DNA of 63,576 nt, the filler included. It is 5 parts of 5 records of this genome, joined end to end, with 100 filler letters (N's around TTAATTAATTAA, not from the genome) between each part and the next. Parts side by side here need not be neighbours in the genome. Positions count along the whole stretch, not along the records: positions 46,696 to 57,471 come from DRR723986_5109; 4 more parts are not named here. One strand, written 5' to 3'. Positions 21,554-55,700 of the stretch are shown piece after piece. The notes under the pieces were generated by a model. The model ran no database searches, had not been told where the DNA came from, and saw nothing but the letters and a program-made list of their open reading frames with translations. Position 1 is the stretch's first letter. Every line of letters starts with the position of its first letter. The position numbers and the translations under genes were made by a program.

Positions 21554-22396
21554 ATGCCCAAGGACGACACCGACAGCTACCATTATCAGGTCATGGCCCG
21601 CGCCATAGAGGTGGTGGATCGGCTCGGACCGCAGGCCACGCTGGACCAGATCGCCGCCCGGATGGGCATGAGCGCCGCGCATTTCCAGCGCCTCTTCAGC
21701 GCCTGGGCCGGGGTCTCGCCGAAACGCTACCAACAATACCTGACCCTTGGCCATGCCAAGCGCCTGCTGGCAGAGCGTTTCACCACGCTGGATACCGCCT
21801 TGGCCACCGGCCTCTCGGGCGGCGGCCGGTTGCACGACCTCTTCCTGCGCTGGGACGCGATGAGCCCCGGAGACTTCGCCCGCGCGGGCGAGGGGCTGAC
21901 GATCTTCTGGGGCTGGTTCGAAAGCCCCTTCGGCCCGGCGCTGGTCATGGGCACCGACCGGGGCCTCTGCGGCATCGCCTTCGCCGCCGAGACGACGGCA
22001 GAGGCAGCGATGGAGGATCTCGTCTCGCGCTGGCCCAAGGCCCTTTTTTGCGAGGACCCCATGCGTCTGCGCCCTTGGGTCCTAAGGGCCTTCGGCGTCG
22101 CGCAGGACGGGCCGGTGCCGCTTTTCCTGATCGGCGCGCCCTTCCAGATCAAGGTCTGGGAGGCGCTGATGCAGATCCCCTCGGGCCATGTCACCACCTA
22201 TTCGGAAATCGCTCAGGCCGTCGGCCACCCCAAGGCGGTGCGCGCGGTCGGAACCGCGGTCGGACGCAACCCGATCAGCTACCTGATCCCCTGCCACCGC
22301 GCCCTGCGCAAATCCGGCGGCCTTGGCGGCTACCATTGGGGACTGCCGGTGAAACGCGCCATCCTCGCGCGCGAGGCGGCGCGGCTGGAGGCCTGA
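21554..22396 (+). CDS. ada: AraC-type HTH fused to O6-methylguanine-DNA methyltransferase (Ada/Ogt-like)
   Basis: HFQRLF..WAGVSPK HTH; FQ.KVW.AL..IP.G...TY, IPCHR active site; no N-terminal Ada Zn domain. Confidence 0.88.
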   Translation: MPKDDTDSYHYQVMARAIEVVDRLGPQATLDQIAARMGMSAAHFQRLFSAWAGVSPKRYQQYLTLGHAKRLLAERFTTLDTALATGLSGGGRLHDLFLRWDAMSPGDFARAGEGLTIFWGWFESPFGPALVMGTDRGLCGIAFAAETTAEAAMEDLVSRWPKALFCEDPMRLRPWVLRAFGVAQDGPVPLFLIGAPFQIKVWEALMQIPSGHVTTYSEIAQAVGHPKAVRAVGTAVGRNPISYLIPCHRALRKSGGLGGYHWGLPVKRAILAREAARLEA

Positions 22397-22562: not shown

Positions 22563-23231
22563 ATGATCCGAGCACGCAACCCCATCCTGATCTCCGCCGG
22601 TCTGGCGCTGGCGCTGGCCGGCTGTACCGATGGCAGCGGCATGTTCCAGAACGACCCCAACCAGAAGGCCAAGCAGGGCGCCCTGATCGGCGCCGCGGCC
22701 GGTGCCCTTGCCGGGCGCGCCGCGGGCGGCGGCGACTCGGGTGAGCGCAACCGCGCCACGGTCGCCGGCGCCCTCGTCGGTGCCGCTGCCGGTGCCGCCA
22801 TCGGCAACCAGCTGGACAAGCAGGCCGCGGAACTGCGCCAGCAGCTTGGCTCCGAGGTCGACATCCGCAACACCGGCGACCGCCTGATCGTCACCATGCC
22901 GCAGGACATCCTGTTCGCCACCGACAGCGCCGACCTGCGTCCGACGCTGATCTCGGACCTGCGTGACGTGGCGCAGAGCCTGTTGGCCTACCCGAACACC
23001 ACCGCTCAGGTCATCGGCCACACCGATTCCGACGGCGACGCCTCGTACAACCTGAACCTGTCGCAGCGTCGCGCGCAGTCCGTCGCGAACGTGCTGATCT
23101 CGGGCGGCGTCCCGACCTCGCGTCTCAGCGTTGTCGGCCGTGGCGAGGACCAGCCGATCGCGTCGAACCTGACCGCGGAAGGCAAGGCCCAGAACCGCCG
23201 GGTCGAGATCGTGATCCTGCCGAACGCCTGA
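22563..23231 (+). CDS. OmpA-family lipoprotein with glycine zipper (YiaD-like)
   Basis: Lipobox LAGC, Gly-zipper, GHTD, N..LS.RRA, NRRVEI. Confidence 0.93.
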   Translation: MIRARNPILISAGLALALAGCTDGSGMFQNDPNQKAKQGALIGAAAGALAGRAAGGGDSGERNRATVAGALVGAAAGAAIGNQLDKQAAELRQQLGSEVDIRNTGDRLIVTMPQDILFATDSADLRPTLISDLRDVAQSLLAYPNTTAQVIGHTDSDGDASYNLNLSQRRAQSVANVLISGGVPTSRLSVVGRGEDQPIASNLTAEGKAQNRRVEIVILPNA

Positions 23232-48418: not shown

Positions 48419-50935
48419 CTATTCACGGGCACGCAATACCTGAGCGGGCCGGGCATTGAGGGACCGCAGCGCAAAGCCGAGGCCGGCAAGGACGGTGGCC
48501 AACACGCCGCCTGCAATGATCATCAGGGCCGATGGCCAGATGATTGTAAAGTCGGTTTCCATCACAAACCGGCTCACCGCCCAACCGCCAAGCACCCCGG
48601 CGAGCAGGGCAACCGCCCCAGCAAACACGCCCAAAAGGGCGGCGCGCAGCATGAAGCTGGCGGCGATGGCGCGGCGGGATGCACCAAGGGTCTTGAGAAG
48701 GGCCGCCTCATAGGTGCGGGCCTGCGCCCCGGCGGCGGCGGCCCCGATCAGCACCAGAAAACCGGTCAAAAGCGTTGCCAAAGCGCCGTAAGACGTGGCA
48801 GCGGCCAGACCGGCCAGCACAGCAGAGACCCTGTCAATCGCGTCGCGCACCCGAATGGCAGTGATGTTGGGATAGGCGCTTGCCAGATCGCGCAGGATCT
48901 GCGCTTCGGCTTCCGCTTCGGCGTAGACGGTTGAAATAAACGTATGCGGTGCGCCGGACAATGCGGCGGGGTTCATCGTCAGGACGAAGCCGATACCAGC
49001 GGTGGAAAAATCGACCTCCTGAAAGCTGGCGATGGTGCCTTTGATATCGCGGCCCAGCACATTGATGGTCAATGTATCGCCCAACGACAGGCCAATCTCC
49101 TCGGCCTCTTCGGTGGCAAAGCTGATCAGGGGCGGGCCGGAATAATCCTCCGGCCACCATGATCCTGCGGTGAGGCGGGCATCGGGGTCAGGCGCTGCGG
49201 CGTAGGTCACGCCGCGGTCGCCCCGCACCACCCAGTGATCGCCTGCAACCTCGTCGGCGGGTTGTCCGTTGATCTTGGTGATGACACCGCGCAACATCGG
49301 CGCGCTGTCGATGCGGCTGACGGCAGGGTCGTTTTCCAAGCGTTCGGTATAGCCGCCGATTTGATCCTTCTGGATATCGACAAAGAAATACGAGGGCGCA
49401 ACATCCGGCAAATTGCCGGAGATTGCATTGCGCAGGTTGCCGTCGATCTGACCCACGGCGGCCAAAACCGACAGGCCAAGGCCAAGGGAAAGAACCACGG
49501 CTCCGGCCCCTTCGCCCTGACCGCTGATCGCGGCGAGGGCCCATCGCAGGCGTGAACGCCCCCGCGCCAAACGTGCCGCCCGGCGCGACAACAGGCGCAG
49601 CAGACCCGCCGCGAGAACCAGCAAGACCAATGCCCCGGCGATGCCGCCCAAGGTCCAAAGCGTTAGCATCCATGATCCGTTGAACCACGCCGCCAGCCCC
49701 ACAAGCGTCGCAACAATCAGCGCGATCACCACCAGATATCGCGGCGCAGGCAGCCGCCGTGCGCCTTGCCATGCATCGCGGAACAATGTGGCGGCCCGCA
49801 CGTCTTCGCTGCGGGCCAGTGGCCAAAGGGTGAAGGCCAGTGCGGTCAGCAAGCCATAAGTCGCGGCCTCGATCAGCGGCAGCGGATAAAACGCAAAGCG
49901 GGCAGGCACCGGCAGACGCGCCTCGATCAACGGCGACAGCAGCATTGGCGCGACCGCACCAAGGATGACGCCGATGGTAACACCCAAAATCGACAGGATC
50001 CCGATCTGGAGAAAATAGGTCTGGAAAATCGTCGCGCGATCTGCGCCCAAGGCCCGCAGGGTGGCAATCACACCTGTCTTGCCATTCAGATAGGACCGCA
50101 CAGCCGCCGACACGCCAACGCCGCCCACCGCCAAACCGGACAGTCCGACCAGCACCAAAAATGCCCCAAGACGTTCGACAAAGCGGGCCACGCCGGGTGC
50201 GCCGTTCCGGGCATCTGTCCAACGCATACCGCTGTTTTCAAATTGCTCAAGGGCCGCCGCTTTGAGCCCGTCAAGGTCGGTGCCCTGCGGCAAAGTCAGC
50301 CGGTACTTGGAGTTGAACAACGTGCCCGGACCAAGCAGGCCGGACCCTTCCAGCGCATCTCGGCGCAACAGGGTGCGCGGCCCGAGGGCAAAACCGCTGG
50401 CGGCGCTGTCAGGCTCTCGAACAATCAAAGCGGACAGATGGTAGGCTTTGCTGCCTAGCTTGAACGTGTCACCTGCTGCAATGCCAAGCCGATCCGACAG
50501 CGCCCGTTCCATCACCGCGCCGGGATTGCCGCCGTGATCCGCCAATGCCGCATCAAGCGGCATCGCGGGATCCAGCACCATCTGCCCGACCAATGGATAG
50601 GCATCATCAACACCTTTGATCTGCGTCAGCGCCCGTTCGTCGCCCACCACTGCCATGGACCGAAATTCAACAATTTCGGAAACAGATGTGGCGCGGGACG
50701 CGATCCAGTCCTGTTCCTCTTCGGTTGCAAACCGGTAGGTGAAATCCAGCTCTGCCGCGCCGCCCAAGAGGGCCGCGCCCTCCCGTTGCAAACCTGCATC
50801 AATCGCGGCGCGGACCGATCCAACTGCGGCAATTGCGGCCACGCCAAGTGCGAGACAGGCCAGAAACAGGCGAAACCCTTTGAGGCCGCCGCGCATTTCA
50901 CGGCGGGCAAAGCGGCTGGCGAGAGGCAGGCTCAT
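48419..50935 (-). CDS. ybbP: ABC permease, YbbP family (duplicated FtsX domains)
   Basis: RE.R.G, CLALGVAAIA, P..FF.DIQ, two FtsX-type halves; 838 aa. Confidence 0.88.
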   Translation of the reverse strand: MSLPLASRFARREMRGGLKGFRLFLACLALGVAAIAAVGSVRAAIDAGLQREGAALLGGAAELDFTYRFATEEEQDWIASRATSVSEIVEFRSMAVVGDERALTQIKGVDDAYPLVGQMVLDPAMPLDAALADHGGNPGAVMERALSDRLGIAAGDTFKLGSKAYHLSALIVREPDSAASGFALGPRTLLRRDALEGSGLLGPGTLFNSKYRLTLPQGTDLDGLKAAALEQFENSGMRWTDARNGAPGVARFVERLGAFLVLVGLSGLAVGGVGVSAAVRSYLNGKTGVIATLRALGADRATIFQTYFLQIGILSILGVTIGVILGAVAPMLLSPLIEARLPVPARFAFYPLPLIEAATYGLLTALAFTLWPLARSEDVRAATLFRDAWQGARRLPAPRYLVVIALIVATLVGLAAWFNGSWMLTLWTLGGIAGALVLLVLAAGLLRLLSRRAARLARGRSRLRWALAAISGQGEGAGAVVLSLGLGLSVLAAVGQIDGNLRNAISGNLPDVAPSYFFVDIQKDQIGGYTERLENDPAVSRIDSAPMLRGVITKINGQPADEVAGDHWVVRGDRGVTYAAAPDPDARLTAGSWWPEDYSGPPLISFATEEAEEIGLSLGDTLTINVLGRDIKGTIASFQEVDFSTAGIGFVLTMNPAALSGAPHTFISTVYAEAEAEAQILRDLASAYPNITAIRVRDAIDRVSAVLAGLAAATSYGALATLLTGFLVLIGAAAAGAQARTYEAALLKTLGASRRAIAASFMLRAALLGVFAGAVALLAGVLGGWAVSRFVMETDFTIIWPSALMIIAGGVLATVLAGLGFALRSLNARPAQVLRARE

Positions 50936-51600
50936 GCGATTTTTCCATCGGCGAGCGCCACGGACCGATCACAACGTTCTGCAAGCGCAGGATCGTGGGT
51001 CACCAACACCAGCGTGGCCCCGTAGGTGTCGCGCATCTCGAACAGCAGATCCATAATGGCGCTGCCATTGGTGCTGTCCAGATTGCCGGTGGGTTCATCA
51101 GCAAGCAAAATCGCTGGGCGCGGCGCACAGGCCCGCGCAAGGGCGACGCGCTGTTGCTCGCCGCCCGAAAGCTGTGCGGGGTAGTGATCAACGCGGTGGC
51201 CAAGGCCAACCGCCTCCAACGCCTCTCGCGCCCGATCAAAGGCATCCGTCTGACCAGAAATCTCCAACGGTGTGGCGACATTTTCTAGCGCGGTCATGGT
51301 CGGGATCAGGTGAAAGGACTGAAATACAATGCCCATGCGCCCCTGCCGGAACCGTGCCAGCGCATCCTCGTCCATCGTGCTGAGGTCATGGCCCAAAGCC
51401 TCAACCGTGCCGCCTGTGGCCTGTTCCAAACCGCCCATCACCATCAGCAAGGATGATTTGCCAGACCCGGACGGCCCAACCAGTGCAACGCTTTCGCGGC
51501 TGTGGACCTTGAGGGAAATTCCGCGCAGGATATCGACCTGTCCGGCATTGCCTCTGAGCGAAAAAGCCACATCTTTAAGCTGGAACACGAGGTCTGTCAT
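50932..51600 (-). CDS. ybbA: ABC ATPase, YbbA family
   Basis: Start ATG 51600; [29 protein letters not shown]; divergent from tesA. Confidence 0.9.
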
Positions 51601-51648
51601 AGGGCCGCCTTTAATTGGGTATCTGCTGGATATGGAGGTCAGTTTGAA

Positions 51649-52290
51649 ATGCGCAAGGTAATGATTGGAATTGTGGTCAGTTTCGCAGGAATTGCGCAAG
51701 CAGAAGAGGTGGTTATTGCCGCCTTGGGCGACAGTTTGACCCAAGGGTATGGATTGCCAGCCGAACAGGGGTTTGTGCCGCAGTTGCAAGCCTGGCTGGA
51801 TGCCAATGGCGCAGAGGTGCGATTGATCAATGCCGGAGTGTCCGGCGATACCACGGCTGGCGGATTGGCGCGGGTGGATTGGACGCTGACGCCGGATGTG
51901 GATGGGATGATCGTGGCGCTGGGCGGCAATGACGTGCTGCGCGGGCTGCCGCCGGAACAGGCGCGGCACAATCTGACCGGTATCCTCACCGCCGCCCAAG
52001 CGGCAGAGGTCGAGGTTCTGCTGGTCGGAATGCAAGCGCCGGGGAACTACGGCGAAGACTACAAAGCCGACTTTGAGGGGATCTACCCCGATTTGGCAAA
52101 AGACTTTGACACTCTTTATCTCGACAGCTTTTTTGCGGGGCTGACCGAGGAGCAGGAAAGCGAAGACCTCAGCGCCTATCGTGCACTGTTCCAGGGTGAT
52201 GGCGTGCATCCCAATGCCGAAGGCGTGGCGATGATTGTTGCGCGGTTTGGGCCAGAGCTGTTGCAGTTGATCAACCAGATTGAGGGCTGA
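51649..52290 (+). CDS. tesA: SGNH/GDSL arylesterase (TesA)
   Basis: GDSL, NAGVSGDTT.GG, LGGND, DGVHPN; signal peptide. Confidence 0.92.
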   Translation: MRKVMIGIVVSFAGIAQAEEVVIAALGDSLTQGYGLPAEQGFVPQLQAWLDANGAEVRLINAGVSGDTTAGGLARVDWTLTPDVDGMIVALGGNDVLRGLPPEQARHNLTGILTAAQAAEVEVLLVGMQAPGNYGEDYKADFEGIYPDLAKDFDTLYLDSFFAGLTEEQESEDLSAYRALFQGDGVHPNAEGVAMIVARFGPELLQLINQIEG

Positions 52291-52293
52291 CCG

Positions 52294-52911
52294 ATGCCCG
52301 GACGCCTGTTTTTGACATCGCCGATCTCTGATTTGCGCGATGTTACGGGCGCCGATACATCCGCGTTCGAGAACGAGCCGCCCCGCCATAATATCGCACC
52401 GGGGCAAGAGCTGTTGTGCGTCACGGCTCTTGGGTTGTCGCGCATGCGGTGGGGGATCATTCCGGTGGGCCGGGTCAATGCGCGGGGGCGTCCGGTGATG
52501 GAAACGCTGATCAATGCCCGGTCCGAAACCGTTTTTGAAAAAACCGCTTATGAAGGCACGGGACGGGCGGTTGTGCCGGTGAACGGATGGTACGAATGGA
52601 CCGGTGAGAAGCGCAAGAAAACCGCTTGGCGGATAGCGCCAAAGGACGGTGGATTGCTGTTTTTCGCGGCGATCACCGACGTATGGAATGGTCCCGGCGG
52701 CGTCACGGTGGAACAAGTCGCCACGGTAACCTGCCCGCCAAACGCAGATGTTGAACCGATCCACCACAGGATGGGTGTTCTGCTGAGGCCGAGTGATATC
52801 GCGCTTTGGCTGCAAGGGCAGGTCTCAGAGGTGCAAAAGCTCATGGTCCCATGGCCTGAAGGTTTGTTGCGCATTGAAAAAGCGGAAGGCGTTGATTGGT
52901 CGGGAGCCTAA
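52294..52911 (+). CDS. SOS response-associated peptidase (SRAP/YedK/HMCES) family protein, Cys2->Pro variant
   Basis: MPGR start, NIAP, RWG.IP, INARSET, GWYEW, IHHRM. Confidence 0.9.
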   Translation: MPGRLFLTSPISDLRDVTGADTSAFENEPPRHNIAPGQELLCVTALGLSRMRWGIIPVGRVNARGRPVMETLINARSETVFEKTAYEGTGRAVVPVNGWYEWTGEKRKKTAWRIAPKDGGLLFFAAITDVWNGPGGVTVEQVATVTCPPNADVEPIHHRMGVLLRPSDIALWLQGQVSEVQKLMVPWPEGLLRIEKAEGVDWSGA

Positions 52912-52980
52912 GCATCCTGACCCTTGCACAATTCTTTGGCATCCCGTGCCGATGATGCATTTTCTTGCACCCTCAATAAT

Positions 52981-52996
52981 TTTACCAGTTGATAAA
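52981..52996. promoter_or_regulatory. RutR/PydR box upstream of preT
   Basis: TTTACCA-GT-TGATAAA, one arm mismatch relative to the box at 56919. Confidence 0.75.
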
Positions 52997-53050
52997 AAAA
53001 TGAATCCGTGAGACCGTTTTTAAAAATCAGGTCATTCAGGGGTGTACCAG

Positions 53051-54373
53051 ATGTCATCAGACGTTTTTGCCGAAGGGATCAAACCGGGCAGGTTGGATCA
53101 AGAGAGTTACGAAGCACAGTTTTCGGATTTGCATCCGCCGCTTGATGCGCATGAGGCGTTGGTGGCAGCCGATCGCTGCTATTTCTGCCATGATGCGCCC
53201 TGCATCACGGCCTGTCCGACGGATATTGATATTCCGCTGTTCATCCGCCAGATCGCCACGGGCACGCCTGATGCGGCCGCCAAAACGATCCTGAGCCAGA
53301 ACATCATGGGCGGCATGTGCGCGCGCGTCTGTCCGACAGAGACGCTTTGTGAAGAGGCCTGCGTGCGGGAATTGGCGGAGGGCAAGCCTGTTTTGATTGG
53401 TCAGTTGCAGCGCTATGCAACCGACCATTTGCAAGAACAGGGTGTGCATCCGTTTGAACGCGCTGCGGCCACGGGCAAGAAGGTGGCGGTTGTGGGGGCG
53501 GGGCCAGCAGGCCTGTCGGCGGCGCACCGTTTGGCGATGATGGGGCATGATGTCGTGGTGCATGACGCGCGGCCCAAGCCTGGCGGGCTTAATGAATATG
53601 GGATCGCGGCTTACAAGACGCCGGATGGCTTTGCGCAGGGCGAGGTGGATTGGCTGCTGAAGATTGGCGGGATCACGCTGCAACATGATGCCAAACTGGG
53701 GCAGGGGATCACCCTGCAAGGTCTGCGCGATGGGTATGACGCGGTGTTCCTCGGGATTGGTCTGGGCGGCGTGAACGCGCTGGGCGCAGAGGGCGAGGAT
53801 AAGGGCGGCGTGACAGATGCGGTGGATTTCATCGCCGATCTGCGGCAAGCCAGCGATTTGGCAACAGTGCCTATTGGCCGCGATGTTGTGGTGATCGGCG
53901 GCGGCATGACTGCTGTAGATGCCGCGGTGCAGGCCAAGCTGCTGGGCGCGTTGAATGTCACGTTGGTGTATCGCCGGGGCCGTGACCGGATGAACGCCAG
54001 TGCCTTTGAACAGGATCTGGCCGCGTCCAAGGGCGTGCGGATCGTGACCCATGCGGTGCCAAAGGCGGTGCATGGCAATGGCGCGGTGCGCGAGATCGAA
54101 TTTGAATATGTGGACGAAGATATGAACGGCACGGGCCAGTCGCTGCGCCTTGCTGCGGACCAGGTGTTCAAGGCAATTGGCCAGACCCTTGAAGGGGATG
54201 ACCTGCCGGAACTGGAGGGCCGCAAGATCAAAGTGGATGGCACGGGGCGCACGTCGCTGGACGGTGTCTGGGCCGGGGGTGATTGTGCATCTGGCGGCGA
54301 TGATTTGACAGTGACAGCCGTGGCTGAGGGCCGTGATGCGGCAATGGATATACATGGGGTGTTGGTGGGTTGA
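53051..54373 (+). CDS. preT: Dihydropyrimidine dehydrogenase subunit PreT (PydX)
   Basis: RC..C.DAPC..ACP, CARVCP...LCE.AC, GAGPAG, GGG.TA.D; upstream of preA. Confidence 0.92.
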   Translation: MSSDVFAEGIKPGRLDQESYEAQFSDLHPPLDAHEALVAADRCYFCHDAPCITACPTDIDIPLFIRQIATGTPDAAAKTILSQNIMGGMCARVCPTETLCEEACVRELAEGKPVLIGQLQRYATDHLQEQGVHPFERAAATGKKVAVVGAGPAGLSAAHRLAMMGHDVVVHDARPKPGGLNEYGIAAYKTPDGFAQGEVDWLLKIGGITLQHDAKLGQGITLQGLRDGYDAVFLGIGLGGVNALGAEGEDKGGVTDAVDFIADLRQASDLATVPIGRDVVVIGGGMTAVDAAVQAKLLGALNVTLVYRRGRDRMNASAFEQDLAASKGVRIVTHAVPKAVHGNGAVREIEFEYVDEDMNGTGQSLRLAADQVFKAIGQTLEGDDLPELEGRKIKVDGTGRTSLDGVWAGGDCASGGDDLTVTAVAEGRDAAMDIHGVLVG

Positions 54374-54398
54374 ACCCCACCCAACGGGAGAGTGAAGA

Positions 54399-55700
54399 AT
54401 GGCTGATCTGACAAGCAATTTCATCGGGATCAAATCCCCAAACCCGTTCTGGCTGGCCTCTGCGCCGCCGACGGACAAAGCCTACAACGTGCGCCGCGCC
54501 TTTGATGCGGGTTGGGGCGGTGTTGTCTGGAAAACCCTTGGGTTAGACCCACATGTGGTCAACGTGAATGGCCCGCGCTATGGCGCGATCTATGGTGCCG
54601 ACCGCCGGCTTTTGGGGCTGAACAACATCGAATTAATCACGGATCGTCCATTGCAGACCAATCTGGACGAGATCAAAGAGGTCAAGCGCGACTACCCTGC
54701 CCAAGCGATGATCGTGTCGCTCATGGTGCCTTGCGAGGAAGAGCCGTGGAAGATGATCCTGCCGATGGTCGAAGAGACCGGCGCGGATGGGGTTGAGCTG
54801 AACTTTGGCTGCCCGCATGGGATGAGCGAGCGGGGCATGGGATCTGCCGTGGGGCAGGTGCCGGAATACATCGAGATGGTCACCCGCTGGGTCAAGGCGA
54901 ACACCCGCATGCCGGTGATCGTGAAACTCACGCCAAACATCACCGACGTGCGCAAACCTGCCGAAGCGGCCAAGCGCGGCGGCGCGGATGCGGTGAGCTT
55001 GATCAATACAATCAACTCGATCACTTCGGTTGATCTGGATCTCTTTGCGCCCGAACCGACCATTGACGGCAAAGGTGCCCATGGCGGCTATTGCGGACCT
55101 GCGGTCAAACCCATCGCCCTGAACATGGTGGCAGAAATTGCCCGCGATCCGGGCCTGCAAGGTCTGCCGATCAGCGGCATTGGCGGGGTCACAACATGGA
55201 AAGATGCGGCTGAATTCCTTGCTTTGGGGGCTGGCAATGTGCAGGTCTGCACCGCGGCGATGACCTATGGCTTCAAGATCGTGCAGGAAATGATCTCGGG
55301 TCTGAGCGATTATATGGACAGCAAGGGCATCACGTCGGTTGACGAAATTGTTGGCCGGGCTGTGCCGAATGTGACCGACTGGAACCAGTTGAACCTGAAC
55401 TACATCGCAAAAGCGAAGATTGATCAGGATCTGTGCATTTCCTGTGGTCGCTGTTTTGCCGCCTGCGAGGATACCTCGCATCAGGCGATTGCCATGTCCG
55501 AGGATCGCACCTTTTCCGTGATCGACGACGAATGCGTGGCCTGCAACCTCTGCGTCAATGTTTGCCCCGTCGAGGGCTGCATCACGATGGAGGCCATGGC
55601 GCCGGGCGAGACTGATCCGCGGACAGGAAAGGTTGTCCAGCCGGACTATGCCAACTGGACAACCCATCCCAACAACCCTGCCGCCAACGCGGCAGAATAA
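54399..55700 (+). CDS. preA: Dihydropyrimidine dehydrogenase subunit PreA (PydA)
   Basis: NPFWLASAPP, NNIELI, LNFGCPHG, KLTPN, two C-terminal 4Fe-4S motifs. Confidence 0.95.
   Translation: MADLTSNFIGIKSPNPFWLASAPPTDKAYNVRRAFDAGWGGVVWKTLGLDPHVVNVNGPRYGAIYGADRRLLGLNNIELITDRPLQTNLDEIKEVKRDYPAQAMIVSLMVPCEEEPWKMILPMVEETGADGVELNFGCPHGMSERGMGSAVGQVPEYIEMVTRWVKANTRMPVIVKLTPNITDVRKPAEAAKRGGADAVSLINTINSITSVDLDLFAPEPTIDGKGAHGGYCGPAVKPIALNMVAEIARDPGLQGLPISGIGGVTTWKDAAEFLALGAGNVQVCTAAMTYGFKIVQEMISGLSDYMDSKGITSVDEIVGRAVPNVTDWNQLNLNYIAKAKIDQDLCISCGRCFAACEDTSHQAIAMSEDRTFSVIDDECVACNLCVNVCPVEGCITMEAMAPGETDPRTGKVVQPDYANWTTHPNNPAANAAE

Follow-up and report, generated by a model that had tools for sequence, protein, structure and literature searches.

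The window, i.e., the whole stretch of DNA from a marine bacterium that was analyzed (63,576 nucleotides), carries a gene for a protein of the SRAP family that has proline as its second residue, where YedK and HMCES have the catalytic Cys2. This gene, here called the Pro2-SRAP gene, lies between a TesA-like GDSL esterase gene and a PreT/PreA-like gene pair, and a divergent ABC transporter pair is located upstream (Table 1). The proline is a conserved trait of a clade under purifying selection, and the protein may be an enzyme that incises single-stranded DNA (ssDNA) at abasic (AP) sites instead of shielding them by a stable crosslink.

Table 1. Positions in the window of the Pro2-SRAP gene, its motifs and other features (aa, amino acids; ORF, open reading frame; HTH, helix-turn-helix)
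Feature	Position	Strand	Remarks
Pro2-SRAP gene	52294..52911	+	205 aa + stop; ORF, Pfam PF02586
Codon 2, CCC = Pro	52297..52299	+	site of catalytic Cys2 in YedK/HMCES
Gly3-Arg4	52300..52305	+	invariant in 81/81 copies
Arg-rich loop PVGRVNARGRPVM, residues 57-69	52462..52500	+	replaces the YedK Trp67/Trp68 "Loop45" DNA wedge
NARSE: Asn74 (YedK Asn75), Arg76 (Arg77), Glu78 (Glu79)	52513..52527	+	conserved in 81/81
WYEW: Trp99 (pocket residue 103), Glu101 (catalytic Glu105), Trp102 (Trp106)	52588..52599	+	conserved in 81/81
TVTC: Thr144 (YedK Ile147, pocket), Thr146 (anchor Thr149), Cys147 (position 150)	52723..52734	+	
HHRMG: His157 (catalytic His160), Arg159 (anchor Arg162), Gly161 (pocket Pro164)	52762..52776	+	His and Arg in 81/81
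TesA-like GDSL esterase gene	51502..52290	+	Pfam Lipase_GDSL_2; stop 3 nt before SRAP start
PreT/PreA-like NAD-dependent dihydropyrimidine dehydrogenase pair	53042-55700	+	directly 3' of SRAP gene
Divergent ABC transporter pair: ybbA-like ATPase and 838-aa permease	48419..51640	−	ORFs; upper boundary near 51640 approximate
Ada-like fusion: AraC-type HTH and O6-methylguanine-DNA methyltransferase DNA-binding domain	21554-22393	+	at island boundary; another DNA-damage gene

The Pro2-SRAP gene and the conservation of its start

The ORF opens with ATG CCC GGA CGC, which encodes MPGR, versus MCGR in the family. A sequence-only reading of this DNA had reported the MPGR start and had pointed out that a change from TGC to CCC takes two base substitutions, and both statements hold. 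Contigs from three metagenome studies agree with the start. An earlier start is impossible because an in-frame TGA (52288-52290), the stop of the upstream GDSL gene, lies two codons 5' of the ATG. A Shine-Dalgarno-like motif, GAGGG (52282-52286), would plausibly serve for ribosome binding. The contigs that cover the start are record 1 of study X1 (whole stretch), record 10 of X3 (52259-53100) and record 15 of X4 (51763-53009). They show no listed difference at 52294-52302, the nearest listed ones being at 52258 and 52392, and X1 may be the window's own source sample.

The Pfam SRAP model (PF02586) matched the protein with an E value of 6.6e-41 and 140.6 bits (cut-off, 27.1) over profile positions 1-203 of 214. 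SRAP was the only domain found in the Pfam scan, with no H2TH domain and no zinc finger. NCBIfam offered no specific model for the protein, and its YedK subfamily model stayed below threshold (50.9 bits versus a cut-off of 349). A sequence search of the PDB returned YedK, HMCES and other SRAP chains. The AlphaFold2 model (predicted local distance difference test score [pLDDT], 92.9; predicted template modeling score [pTM], 0.89) had as its top Foldseek matches the SRAP structures 2f20, 6kbz, 6nua, 8d2m and 6oea (TM scores of 0.74-0.84), of which 6nua is the YedK crosslink and 8d2m the Schiff-base complex of the C2A variant. All matches listed with an E value of ≤1.5e-08 (ranks 1-21) were SRAP structures, and no Fpg or Nei structure was among the fold hits. 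Judged by its sequence and predicted fold, the protein is a member of the SRAP superfamily by descent.

A word-indexed search gave 1819 candidates, of which 1596 were homologues at E 0.001 or better, and the best 120 listed (64-94% identity) all start with PGR preceded by M, V or L. Scanning species-representative genomes yielded 199 stretches that encode such a protein; 80 were kept, giving 81 copies together with the window. The 80 loci belong to Sulfitobacter, Tateyamaria, Roseobacter, Ruegeria, Shimia, Chachezhania and other Roseobacteraceae, the closest copy being that of S. mediterraneus DSM 12244 (93%). In all 81 copies the Pro codon directly follows the start codon, which is ATG in 63, GTG in 14 and TTG in 4. 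All four CCN codons are used for this residue (CCG in 55 copies, CCC in 19, CCA in 5 and CCT in 2), and in 64 of the 80 loci an in-frame stop lies ≤33 nt upstream of the start. What the clade conserves is a proline placed immediately after the initiator, just as Cys2 is placed in the other family members.

The ratio of nonsynonymous to synonymous divergence (dN/dS), estimated by the method of Nei and Gojobori, was 0.102 between the window and locus L021 (dS, 0.40) and 0.10-0.17 for the four closest pairs. The median over the 1188 pairs with 0.05 < dS < 1.5 was 0.22, a value probably inflated by saturation of dS. Of the 205 alignment columns, 48 were invariant across the 81 copies. The clade is under purifying selection. 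The expectation that MPGR would mark a conserved clade and not a singleton, and that this clade would be under purifying selection, is thus borne out by 120/120 best homologues, 81/81 genomic copies and a dN/dS of about 0.1 in the closest pairs. Two short cluster representatives that resemble the Pro2 clade, P0136 (158 aa) and P0170 (134 aa), start with MHGR, where a single base separates the His2 codon from one for Pro; errors, gene decay or yet another variant may account for them.

The possibility that a sequencing error or a wrong start codon masks a normal Cys2 protein has practically no probability left. The TGA two codons upstream, the same arrangement in 81/81 independent genomes, the agreement of the three metagenome assemblies at codon 2 and the lack of any Cys near the N terminus all speak against it, and this artifact was rejected.

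Pro2 proteins also occur outside the roseobacters. Among representatives clustered at 50% identity, 11189 matched at E 0.001 or better; in the best 150 of these, which were examined, Pro2 proteins rank at the top and canonical MCGR proteins come after them. Two representatives, P0199 and P0230, start with MPGRLIQD, and a search with P0199 added seven more. Two of the resulting nine planctomycete-type proteins are named by their source as Planctomycetes metagenome-assembled genomes, and their nearest Cys2 protein is 46% identical. The group shares GWYEWT, TCEPN and HHRMG with the roseobacter clade.

Catalytic center, wedge loop and residue-2 pocket

In SRAP proteins, the alpha-amine of residue 2 first makes a Schiff base, and the thiol then closes the thiazolidine (Paulin 2022, PMC9436759). 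With YedK (L112) as the numbering reference, Arg4, Pro40, Asn75, Arg77, Glu79, Glu105, Trp106, Thr149, His160 and Arg162 are kept in 81/81 copies, so that both the Asn/Glu/His center and the Arg77/Thr149/Arg162 anchor of the AP-site phosphate are intact. In Wang 2019, Arg4 contacts DNA and R4A weakens ssDNA binding by YedK, and mutation of the anchor residues abolishes it. The motifs that had been described as intact are present (NIAP, residues 33-36; RWG, 52-54; NARSET, 74-79; GWYEW, 98-102; IHHRM, 156-160), but the description does not extend to the Trp wedge loop, which is replaced.

The protein is thus like YedK and HMCES in its homologous sequence and predicted fold, its Asn/Glu/His center, its phosphate anchor and the Gly-Arg that follows residue 2. 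Unlike them, it has Pro2, and the thiazolidine crosslink that defines these proteins is chemically excluded because residue 2 has no thiol. It further differs from YedK in having Thr and Gly in place of Ile147 and Pro164, an Arg-rich loop in place of the Trp67/Trp68 wedge and a C terminus that is 17 residues shorter. From its sequence, the protein lacks the Cys2, the pocket residues and the Loop45 of the crosslinker class and retains the phosphate anchor.

Nine residues of the Arg-rich loop (P57, G59, R60, R64, G65, R66, P67, V68 and M69) are invariant in the 81 copies. The loop is the block of lowest pLDDT (67) in the AlphaFold2 model. At the column of YedK W67, every roseobacter-type Pro2 protein has Gly or a gap, so that the Loop45 wedge is lacking in this group. 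In YedK, W67A and W68A abolish ssDNA binding (mutant data in Wang 2019), and because the Trp67/Trp68 loop is replaced, recognition of the 5' side of the DNA must differ from that of YedK. The loop may thus point to the same covalent chemistry on another target, with the loop setting specificity. Such a target might be the unsaturated aldehyde that lyases leave at 3' ends, a formyl-base lesion, RNA with an abasic site, or DNA in duplex or junction form. Its invariance in place of Loop45 in the roseobacter clade fits such a change, as do the shorter C terminus (205 versus 222 aa) and the reaction of YedK itself with 3'-phospho-unsaturated-aldehyde (3'-PUA) ends described in Paulin 2022 (PMC9436759). 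In contrast, a Loop45 Trp is retained in seven of the nine planctomycete-type Pro2 proteins, so that the loop change is uncoupled from the replacement of Cys2 by Pro, and the phosphate anchor of Arg, Thr and Arg is unchanged. A different target is distinctly unlikely in view of these two observations.

In the YedK crosslink, the thiazolidine ring is lodged in a hydrophobic pocket whose walls are Trp103, Ile147, Thr149 and Pro164 (Wang 2019). This pocket was compared in an alignment of 365 sequences, including 197 Cys2 and 140 Pro2 proteins (131 of roseobacter type and 9 of planctomycete type); the sequences are relatives gathered as neighbors of two Pro2 queries, and the counts are to be read as association and not as statistics. 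Position 164 is Pro in 197/197 Cys2 proteins, and in the Pro2 proteins it is Gly in 107, Ala in 27, Pro in 5 and a gap in 1. Position 147 of the Cys2 proteins is Ile (159), Val (18), Leu (17) or Met (3). In roseobacter-type Pro2 proteins its five commonest states are Thr (96), Ala (24), Ser (5), Val (3) and Ile (1), and in the planctomycete type it is Val (9/9). Position 103 is Phe (178), Tyr (12) or Trp (7) with Cys2 and Trp in 140/140 with Pro2. In the window protein, Trp99 and Thr146 are kept, Ile147 is replaced by Thr144 and Pro164 by Gly161, and the pocket is therefore not that of the crosslinkers. In the aligned sequences, the thiazolidine pocket is rebuilt wherever residue 2 is Pro. This remodeling and the swap to an Arg-rich loop go beyond what the sequence-only reading had described.

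Pro164 persists in five Pro2 proteins, among them the divergent P0124, P0126, P0127 (source name, Roseobacter sp.) and P0140. These four are placed at or near the base of the main Pro2 clade in LG+G4 and FastTree trees, and this placement suggests that the change from Cys to Pro came first and that from Pro164 to Gly later. Cys147 (YedK position 150) was considered as a substitute thiol, as Cys occupies this position in 137/140 Pro2 proteins, and was rejected as unlikely. It alternates along a beta-strand with the pocket-facing positions 147 and 149 and so should face away, and a Cys at position 150 is also present in 19/197 Cys2 proteins, which counts against such a role.

The thiazolidine formed from Cys and an aldehyde is a sulfur analogue of the proline ring, and it is therefore reasonable that Pro2 would use the same pocket in an enlarged form, an idea in keeping with the changes of Pro164 to Gly and of Ile147 to Thr or Ala. 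The same analogy would also suit a protein that binds AP sites or ssDNA and does not cleave: the Pro2 ring would mimic the thioproline-like thiazolidine, and the protein would shield or sense its target noncovalently or through a reversible iminium, avoiding the crosslink. All DNA-anchor residues are kept for such binding, and the pocket in which the ring is seated co-varies with Pro2. In addition, YedK holds a nonreactive tetrahydrofuran (THF) site tightly, with a Kd of 0.17 µM (Wang 2019), and SRAP crosslinks can be undone by way of the Schiff base (Paulin 2022, PMC9436759). Against mere binding, however, Pro is strictly the first residue after the start codon (81/81), which points to the chemistry of a free amine, the full retention of the Glu/His acid-base pair points to chemistry over space filling, and beta-elimination is an inherent tendency of an iminium at C1'. 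A binder that does not cleave is for these reasons unlikely, while holding a real share of the probability.

The number of origins of Pro2 was addressed with trees. Neither a quick LG+G4 tree nor a FastTree tree built after masking of the trait and pocket columns placed P0140 and the planctomycete Pro2 group within the main Pro2 clade. When all Pro2 proteins were forced into one group, which was named only after the first tree had been seen, the resulting trees beat the free searches by 127.9 log-likelihood units (P value of the approximately unbiased test [p-AU], 0.992), and, after masking of residues 1-4 and the pocket columns, by 51.9 units (p-AU, 0.863). Since the constrained trees reach a higher likelihood than the free searches, the quick trees are unreliable. 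A single old origin of Pro2, as the best tree found, is favored over multiple origins. If the Pro2 groups were independent, the pocket changes that they share would be convergent, and these changes look functional under one origin or several. The trees put one Cys2 protein, P0138 (MCGRFFLQ; 213 aa, cluster of 3 members), with the Pro2 clade. This protein shows Trp103, Cys150 and HHRMP, and WHDW for WYEW, with Asp replacing the catalytic Glu; it may be an intermediate or a side branch of the transition from Cys to Pro.

Canonical paralogues and gene neighborhood

Five genomes that carry the Pro2 gene were searched with the Pfam SRAP model. In 4/5 of them, a canonical SRAP gene whose product starts with MCGR[M/F]A[V/I]TLP is present alongside the Pro2 gene, as had been anticipated from the window sequence. 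The canonical paralogues scored 220-232 bits versus 126-139 bits for the Pro2 genes of the same genomes. In the fifth genome, that of Roseobacter cerasinus (G046), the only other SRAP match is a fragment with an internal TAA (L110, G046:C11:33679-33990), and the Pro2 gene is intact, indicating that the Pro2 copy can outlive the canonical one. S. mediterraneus has a third, divergent SRAP gene (L111, G042:C6:166932-167549) with Cys2, a start of MCNLYANK and 108.8 bits to the Pfam model. It shares a contig with the Pro2 gene, at a distance of ~55 kb, and adjoins a possible mobile-element ORF, and it may be a phage-type SRAP.

The distribution was surveyed in 201 genomes sampled evenly from the family to which S. 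mediterraneus (G042) belongs, with matches classed by identity and not by their N termini. A SRAP match of any kind was found in 169 genomes and a Pro2-type match in 32 (51-93% identity, E 7e-57 or better), with a clean gap in identity below the latter down to 41%. At least two SRAP matches, the second counted whatever its residue 2, were present in 30/32 genomes with a Pro2-type match, and 3/32 matches were partial. Genomes G050 and G196 had a Pro2-type match, and a canonical copy was not found in them in this survey. The coexistence of the two SRAP types in sequenced genomes fits a division of labor.

These genomes also bear on whether the Pro2 protein is a catalytically dead relic of a duplicated SRAP, kept for a structural or binding role that has no need for Pro or drifting toward loss. 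The canonical nucleophile is gone, the Pfam score lies well under that of the canonical paralogues, and the gene context gives no pointer to repair. A dead protein would, however, be hard to reconcile with a dN/dS of about 0.1, with the invariance of Pro2, Gly3 and Arg4 despite synonymous turnover at the Pro codon, with the invariant Glu/His/Asn center, or with coordinated pocket changes that are common to the planctomycete group. The Pro2 gene is also maintained in genomes with a broken canonical copy or with none found (G046, G050 and G196). A relic is accordingly very improbable.

In 79/80 loci, the next gene upstream, with the same orientation, is the GDSL esterase gene. It also matches the NCBIfam model PRK10528 (acyl-CoA thioesterase I) below the curated cut-off, and its translation has a signal-peptide-like N terminus. 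Because the gap between the two genes is 3 nt, they probably share one transcript, as far as their arrangement tells. The adjacency looks like inherited synteny without a visible functional tie. The divergent ybbA/ybbP-like ABC transporter pair is found upstream on the opposite strand in 78/80 loci and is probably conserved synteny unrelated in function, and PreT- or PreA-like genes are located downstream of the Pro2-SRAP gene in 51/80. A promoter and terminator scan gave nothing above shuffled sequences, and an Rfam scan of the window found no RNA family.

Genome G001 has only a canonical MCGR protein as its SRAP, and its DNA is 68-74% identical at the SRAP locus. Window positions 1-21347 are colinear with G001:C1:641440-662785 and 98% identical; elsewhere G001 is 68-74% identical or lacks the window sequence. 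It was because of this stretch that G001 ranked nearest to the window (26% shared words). An island of at least 21 kb seems to have been exchanged recently here; it ends just before the Ada-like gene and a tRNA-Gly gene (22587-22671, minus strand).

Proposed chemistry and its meaning for the SRAP family

The observed clade, its selection and paralogy, the conserved center and the co-varying pocket lead to a proposed chemistry of which every step is deduced. Methionine aminopeptidase normally removes Met when Pro follows, and this specificity would strip Met1 and expose the secondary amine of Pro, as in Fpg. The conserved Arg76/Thr146/Arg159 anchor, together with Arg4, Pro36 and Trp102, would then bind single-stranded nucleic acid in the manner of YedK, and Glu101 and His157 would, by homology, open the ring of the abasic sugar. 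Attack of the Pro amine on C1' would give an iminium, held in a rebuilt pocket (Pro164 to Gly, Ile147 to Thr, Trp at position 103) that would take the pyrrolidine in place of the thiazolidine. Because this iminium is permanently charged, it would favor hydrolysis back or beta-elimination, making the protein a turnover ssDNA AP lyase and not a suicide crosslinker, and one that would act beside the Cys2 SRAP of the same genome.

The closest experimental analogue is the thiol-less YedK. In Paulin 2022 (PMC9436759), YedK C2A makes no crosslink, forms a borohydride-trappable Schiff base through its N-terminal amine and cleaves AP-DNA, in agreement with the earlier suggestion that loss of the thiol shifts a SRAP toward cleavage. 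The rates of AP-DNA cleavage are 0.05 for C2A, 0.002 for C2A/E105Q and 0.02 for C2A/H160Q (units are not stated in the passage concerned; Paulin 2022, PMC9436759), and these drops indicate that Glu105 is needed and that His160 contributes. The window protein resembles the C2A and C2S laboratory mutants, whose N-terminal amine makes the Schiff base and cleaves the strand (same source), in being a SRAP fold without a thiol. The mutants, however, have a primary amine and an unaltered pocket and are slow, whereas the window protein has a secondary amine, a co-evolved pocket and a history of natural selection.

A resemblance to the H2TH proteins Fpg and Nei exists in principle through the N-terminal Pro, and for the window protein it would be a matter of convergence and not of membership. 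The fold is unrelated, there is no H2TH domain or zinc finger and no glycosylase function is implied, so that only the N-terminal Pro is common. In Fpg this Pro is reportedly the Schiff-base nucleophile that acts on C1'. The nucleophile of Nei2 is likewise an N-terminal Pro. Mycobacterial Nei2 has been described as an ssDNA AP beta-lyase. In the tautomerase superfamily (4-oxalocrotonate tautomerase, MIF), a free N-terminal Pro1 is the catalytic amine, but the fold and the substrates are unrelated, and there is no sequence or fold match to the window protein.

The alphaproteobacterial LexA-type box is GTTC-N7-GTTC. Several observations, beginning with this box, weigh against a lyase that acts in DNA repair. 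No box was found within 7 kb of the SRAP gene, the 5 hits in the window (2.4 expected) all being >7 kb away, and among the related loci it was found in 4/80, each time inside the ABC ATPase gene. Gene context gives no link to DNA repair, the neighbor being a secreted-type TesA-like esterase in 79/80 loci, and RNA run X18 covers 51400-51538 only and is silent on SRAP expression. On the side of the chemistry, YedK C2A is a slow lyase, and its cleavage may be an incidental activity that a natural Pro2 protein holds in check and does not put to use. The N-H that forms a hydrogen bond with Glu105 in the YedK crosslink gives way to the ring C-delta in a Pro iminium, and the geometry may differ. With its altered loop, the roseobacter clade may moreover have a ligand that is not of the YedK-type ssDNA geometry. 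The ~3.6-kb loci around 5 canonical paralogues likewise contain no GTTC-N7-GTTC box. Membership of the Pro2-SRAP gene in the SOS regulon was rejected, as no LexA operator was found for it in the window or the 80 loci.

Taken with these points, formation of an iminium between the Pro2 amine and ssDNA abasic sites, leading to strand incision and not to a stable crosslink, is given a probability of roughly 0.45 on the basis of sequence and of analogy with the YedK mutants. The broader proposal is advanced tentatively: that the swap from Cys to Pro and the rebuilt pocket turned a crosslinking shield into a turnover ssDNA AP lyase or iminium enzyme, and that this enzyme is old (Roseobacteraceae and Planctomycetes) and is kept beside a canonical SRAP.

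In the SRAP field, Cys2 has been taken as invariant and the thiazolidine crosslink as the reason for the family to exist. Aravind 2013 calls the Cys "absolutely conserved" and always the second amino acid. A full-text search of the literature that did not reach PDF supplements or subscription-only papers found no SRAP paper with "Pro2" or "N-terminal proline". The source annotations of Pro2 proteins read "SOS response-associated peptidase" or "abasic site processing protein" and do not flag the change of nucleophile. Because database names carry no such flag, the crosslinker function has probably been mis-transferred to at least hundreds of entries.

The Pro2 subfamily is the natural counterpart of the C2A mutant and shows a SRAP fold that is unable to crosslink. 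If the lyase proposal is true, it would be a dedicated bacterial ssDNA AP lyase that converged with the chemistry of Fpg and Nei on an unrelated fold, and bacteria with both SRAPs could choose between protecting and cutting an AP site in ssDNA. Cells with Cys2 and Pro2 paralogues would thus offer a system for testing the choice between shielding and incising at replication forks.

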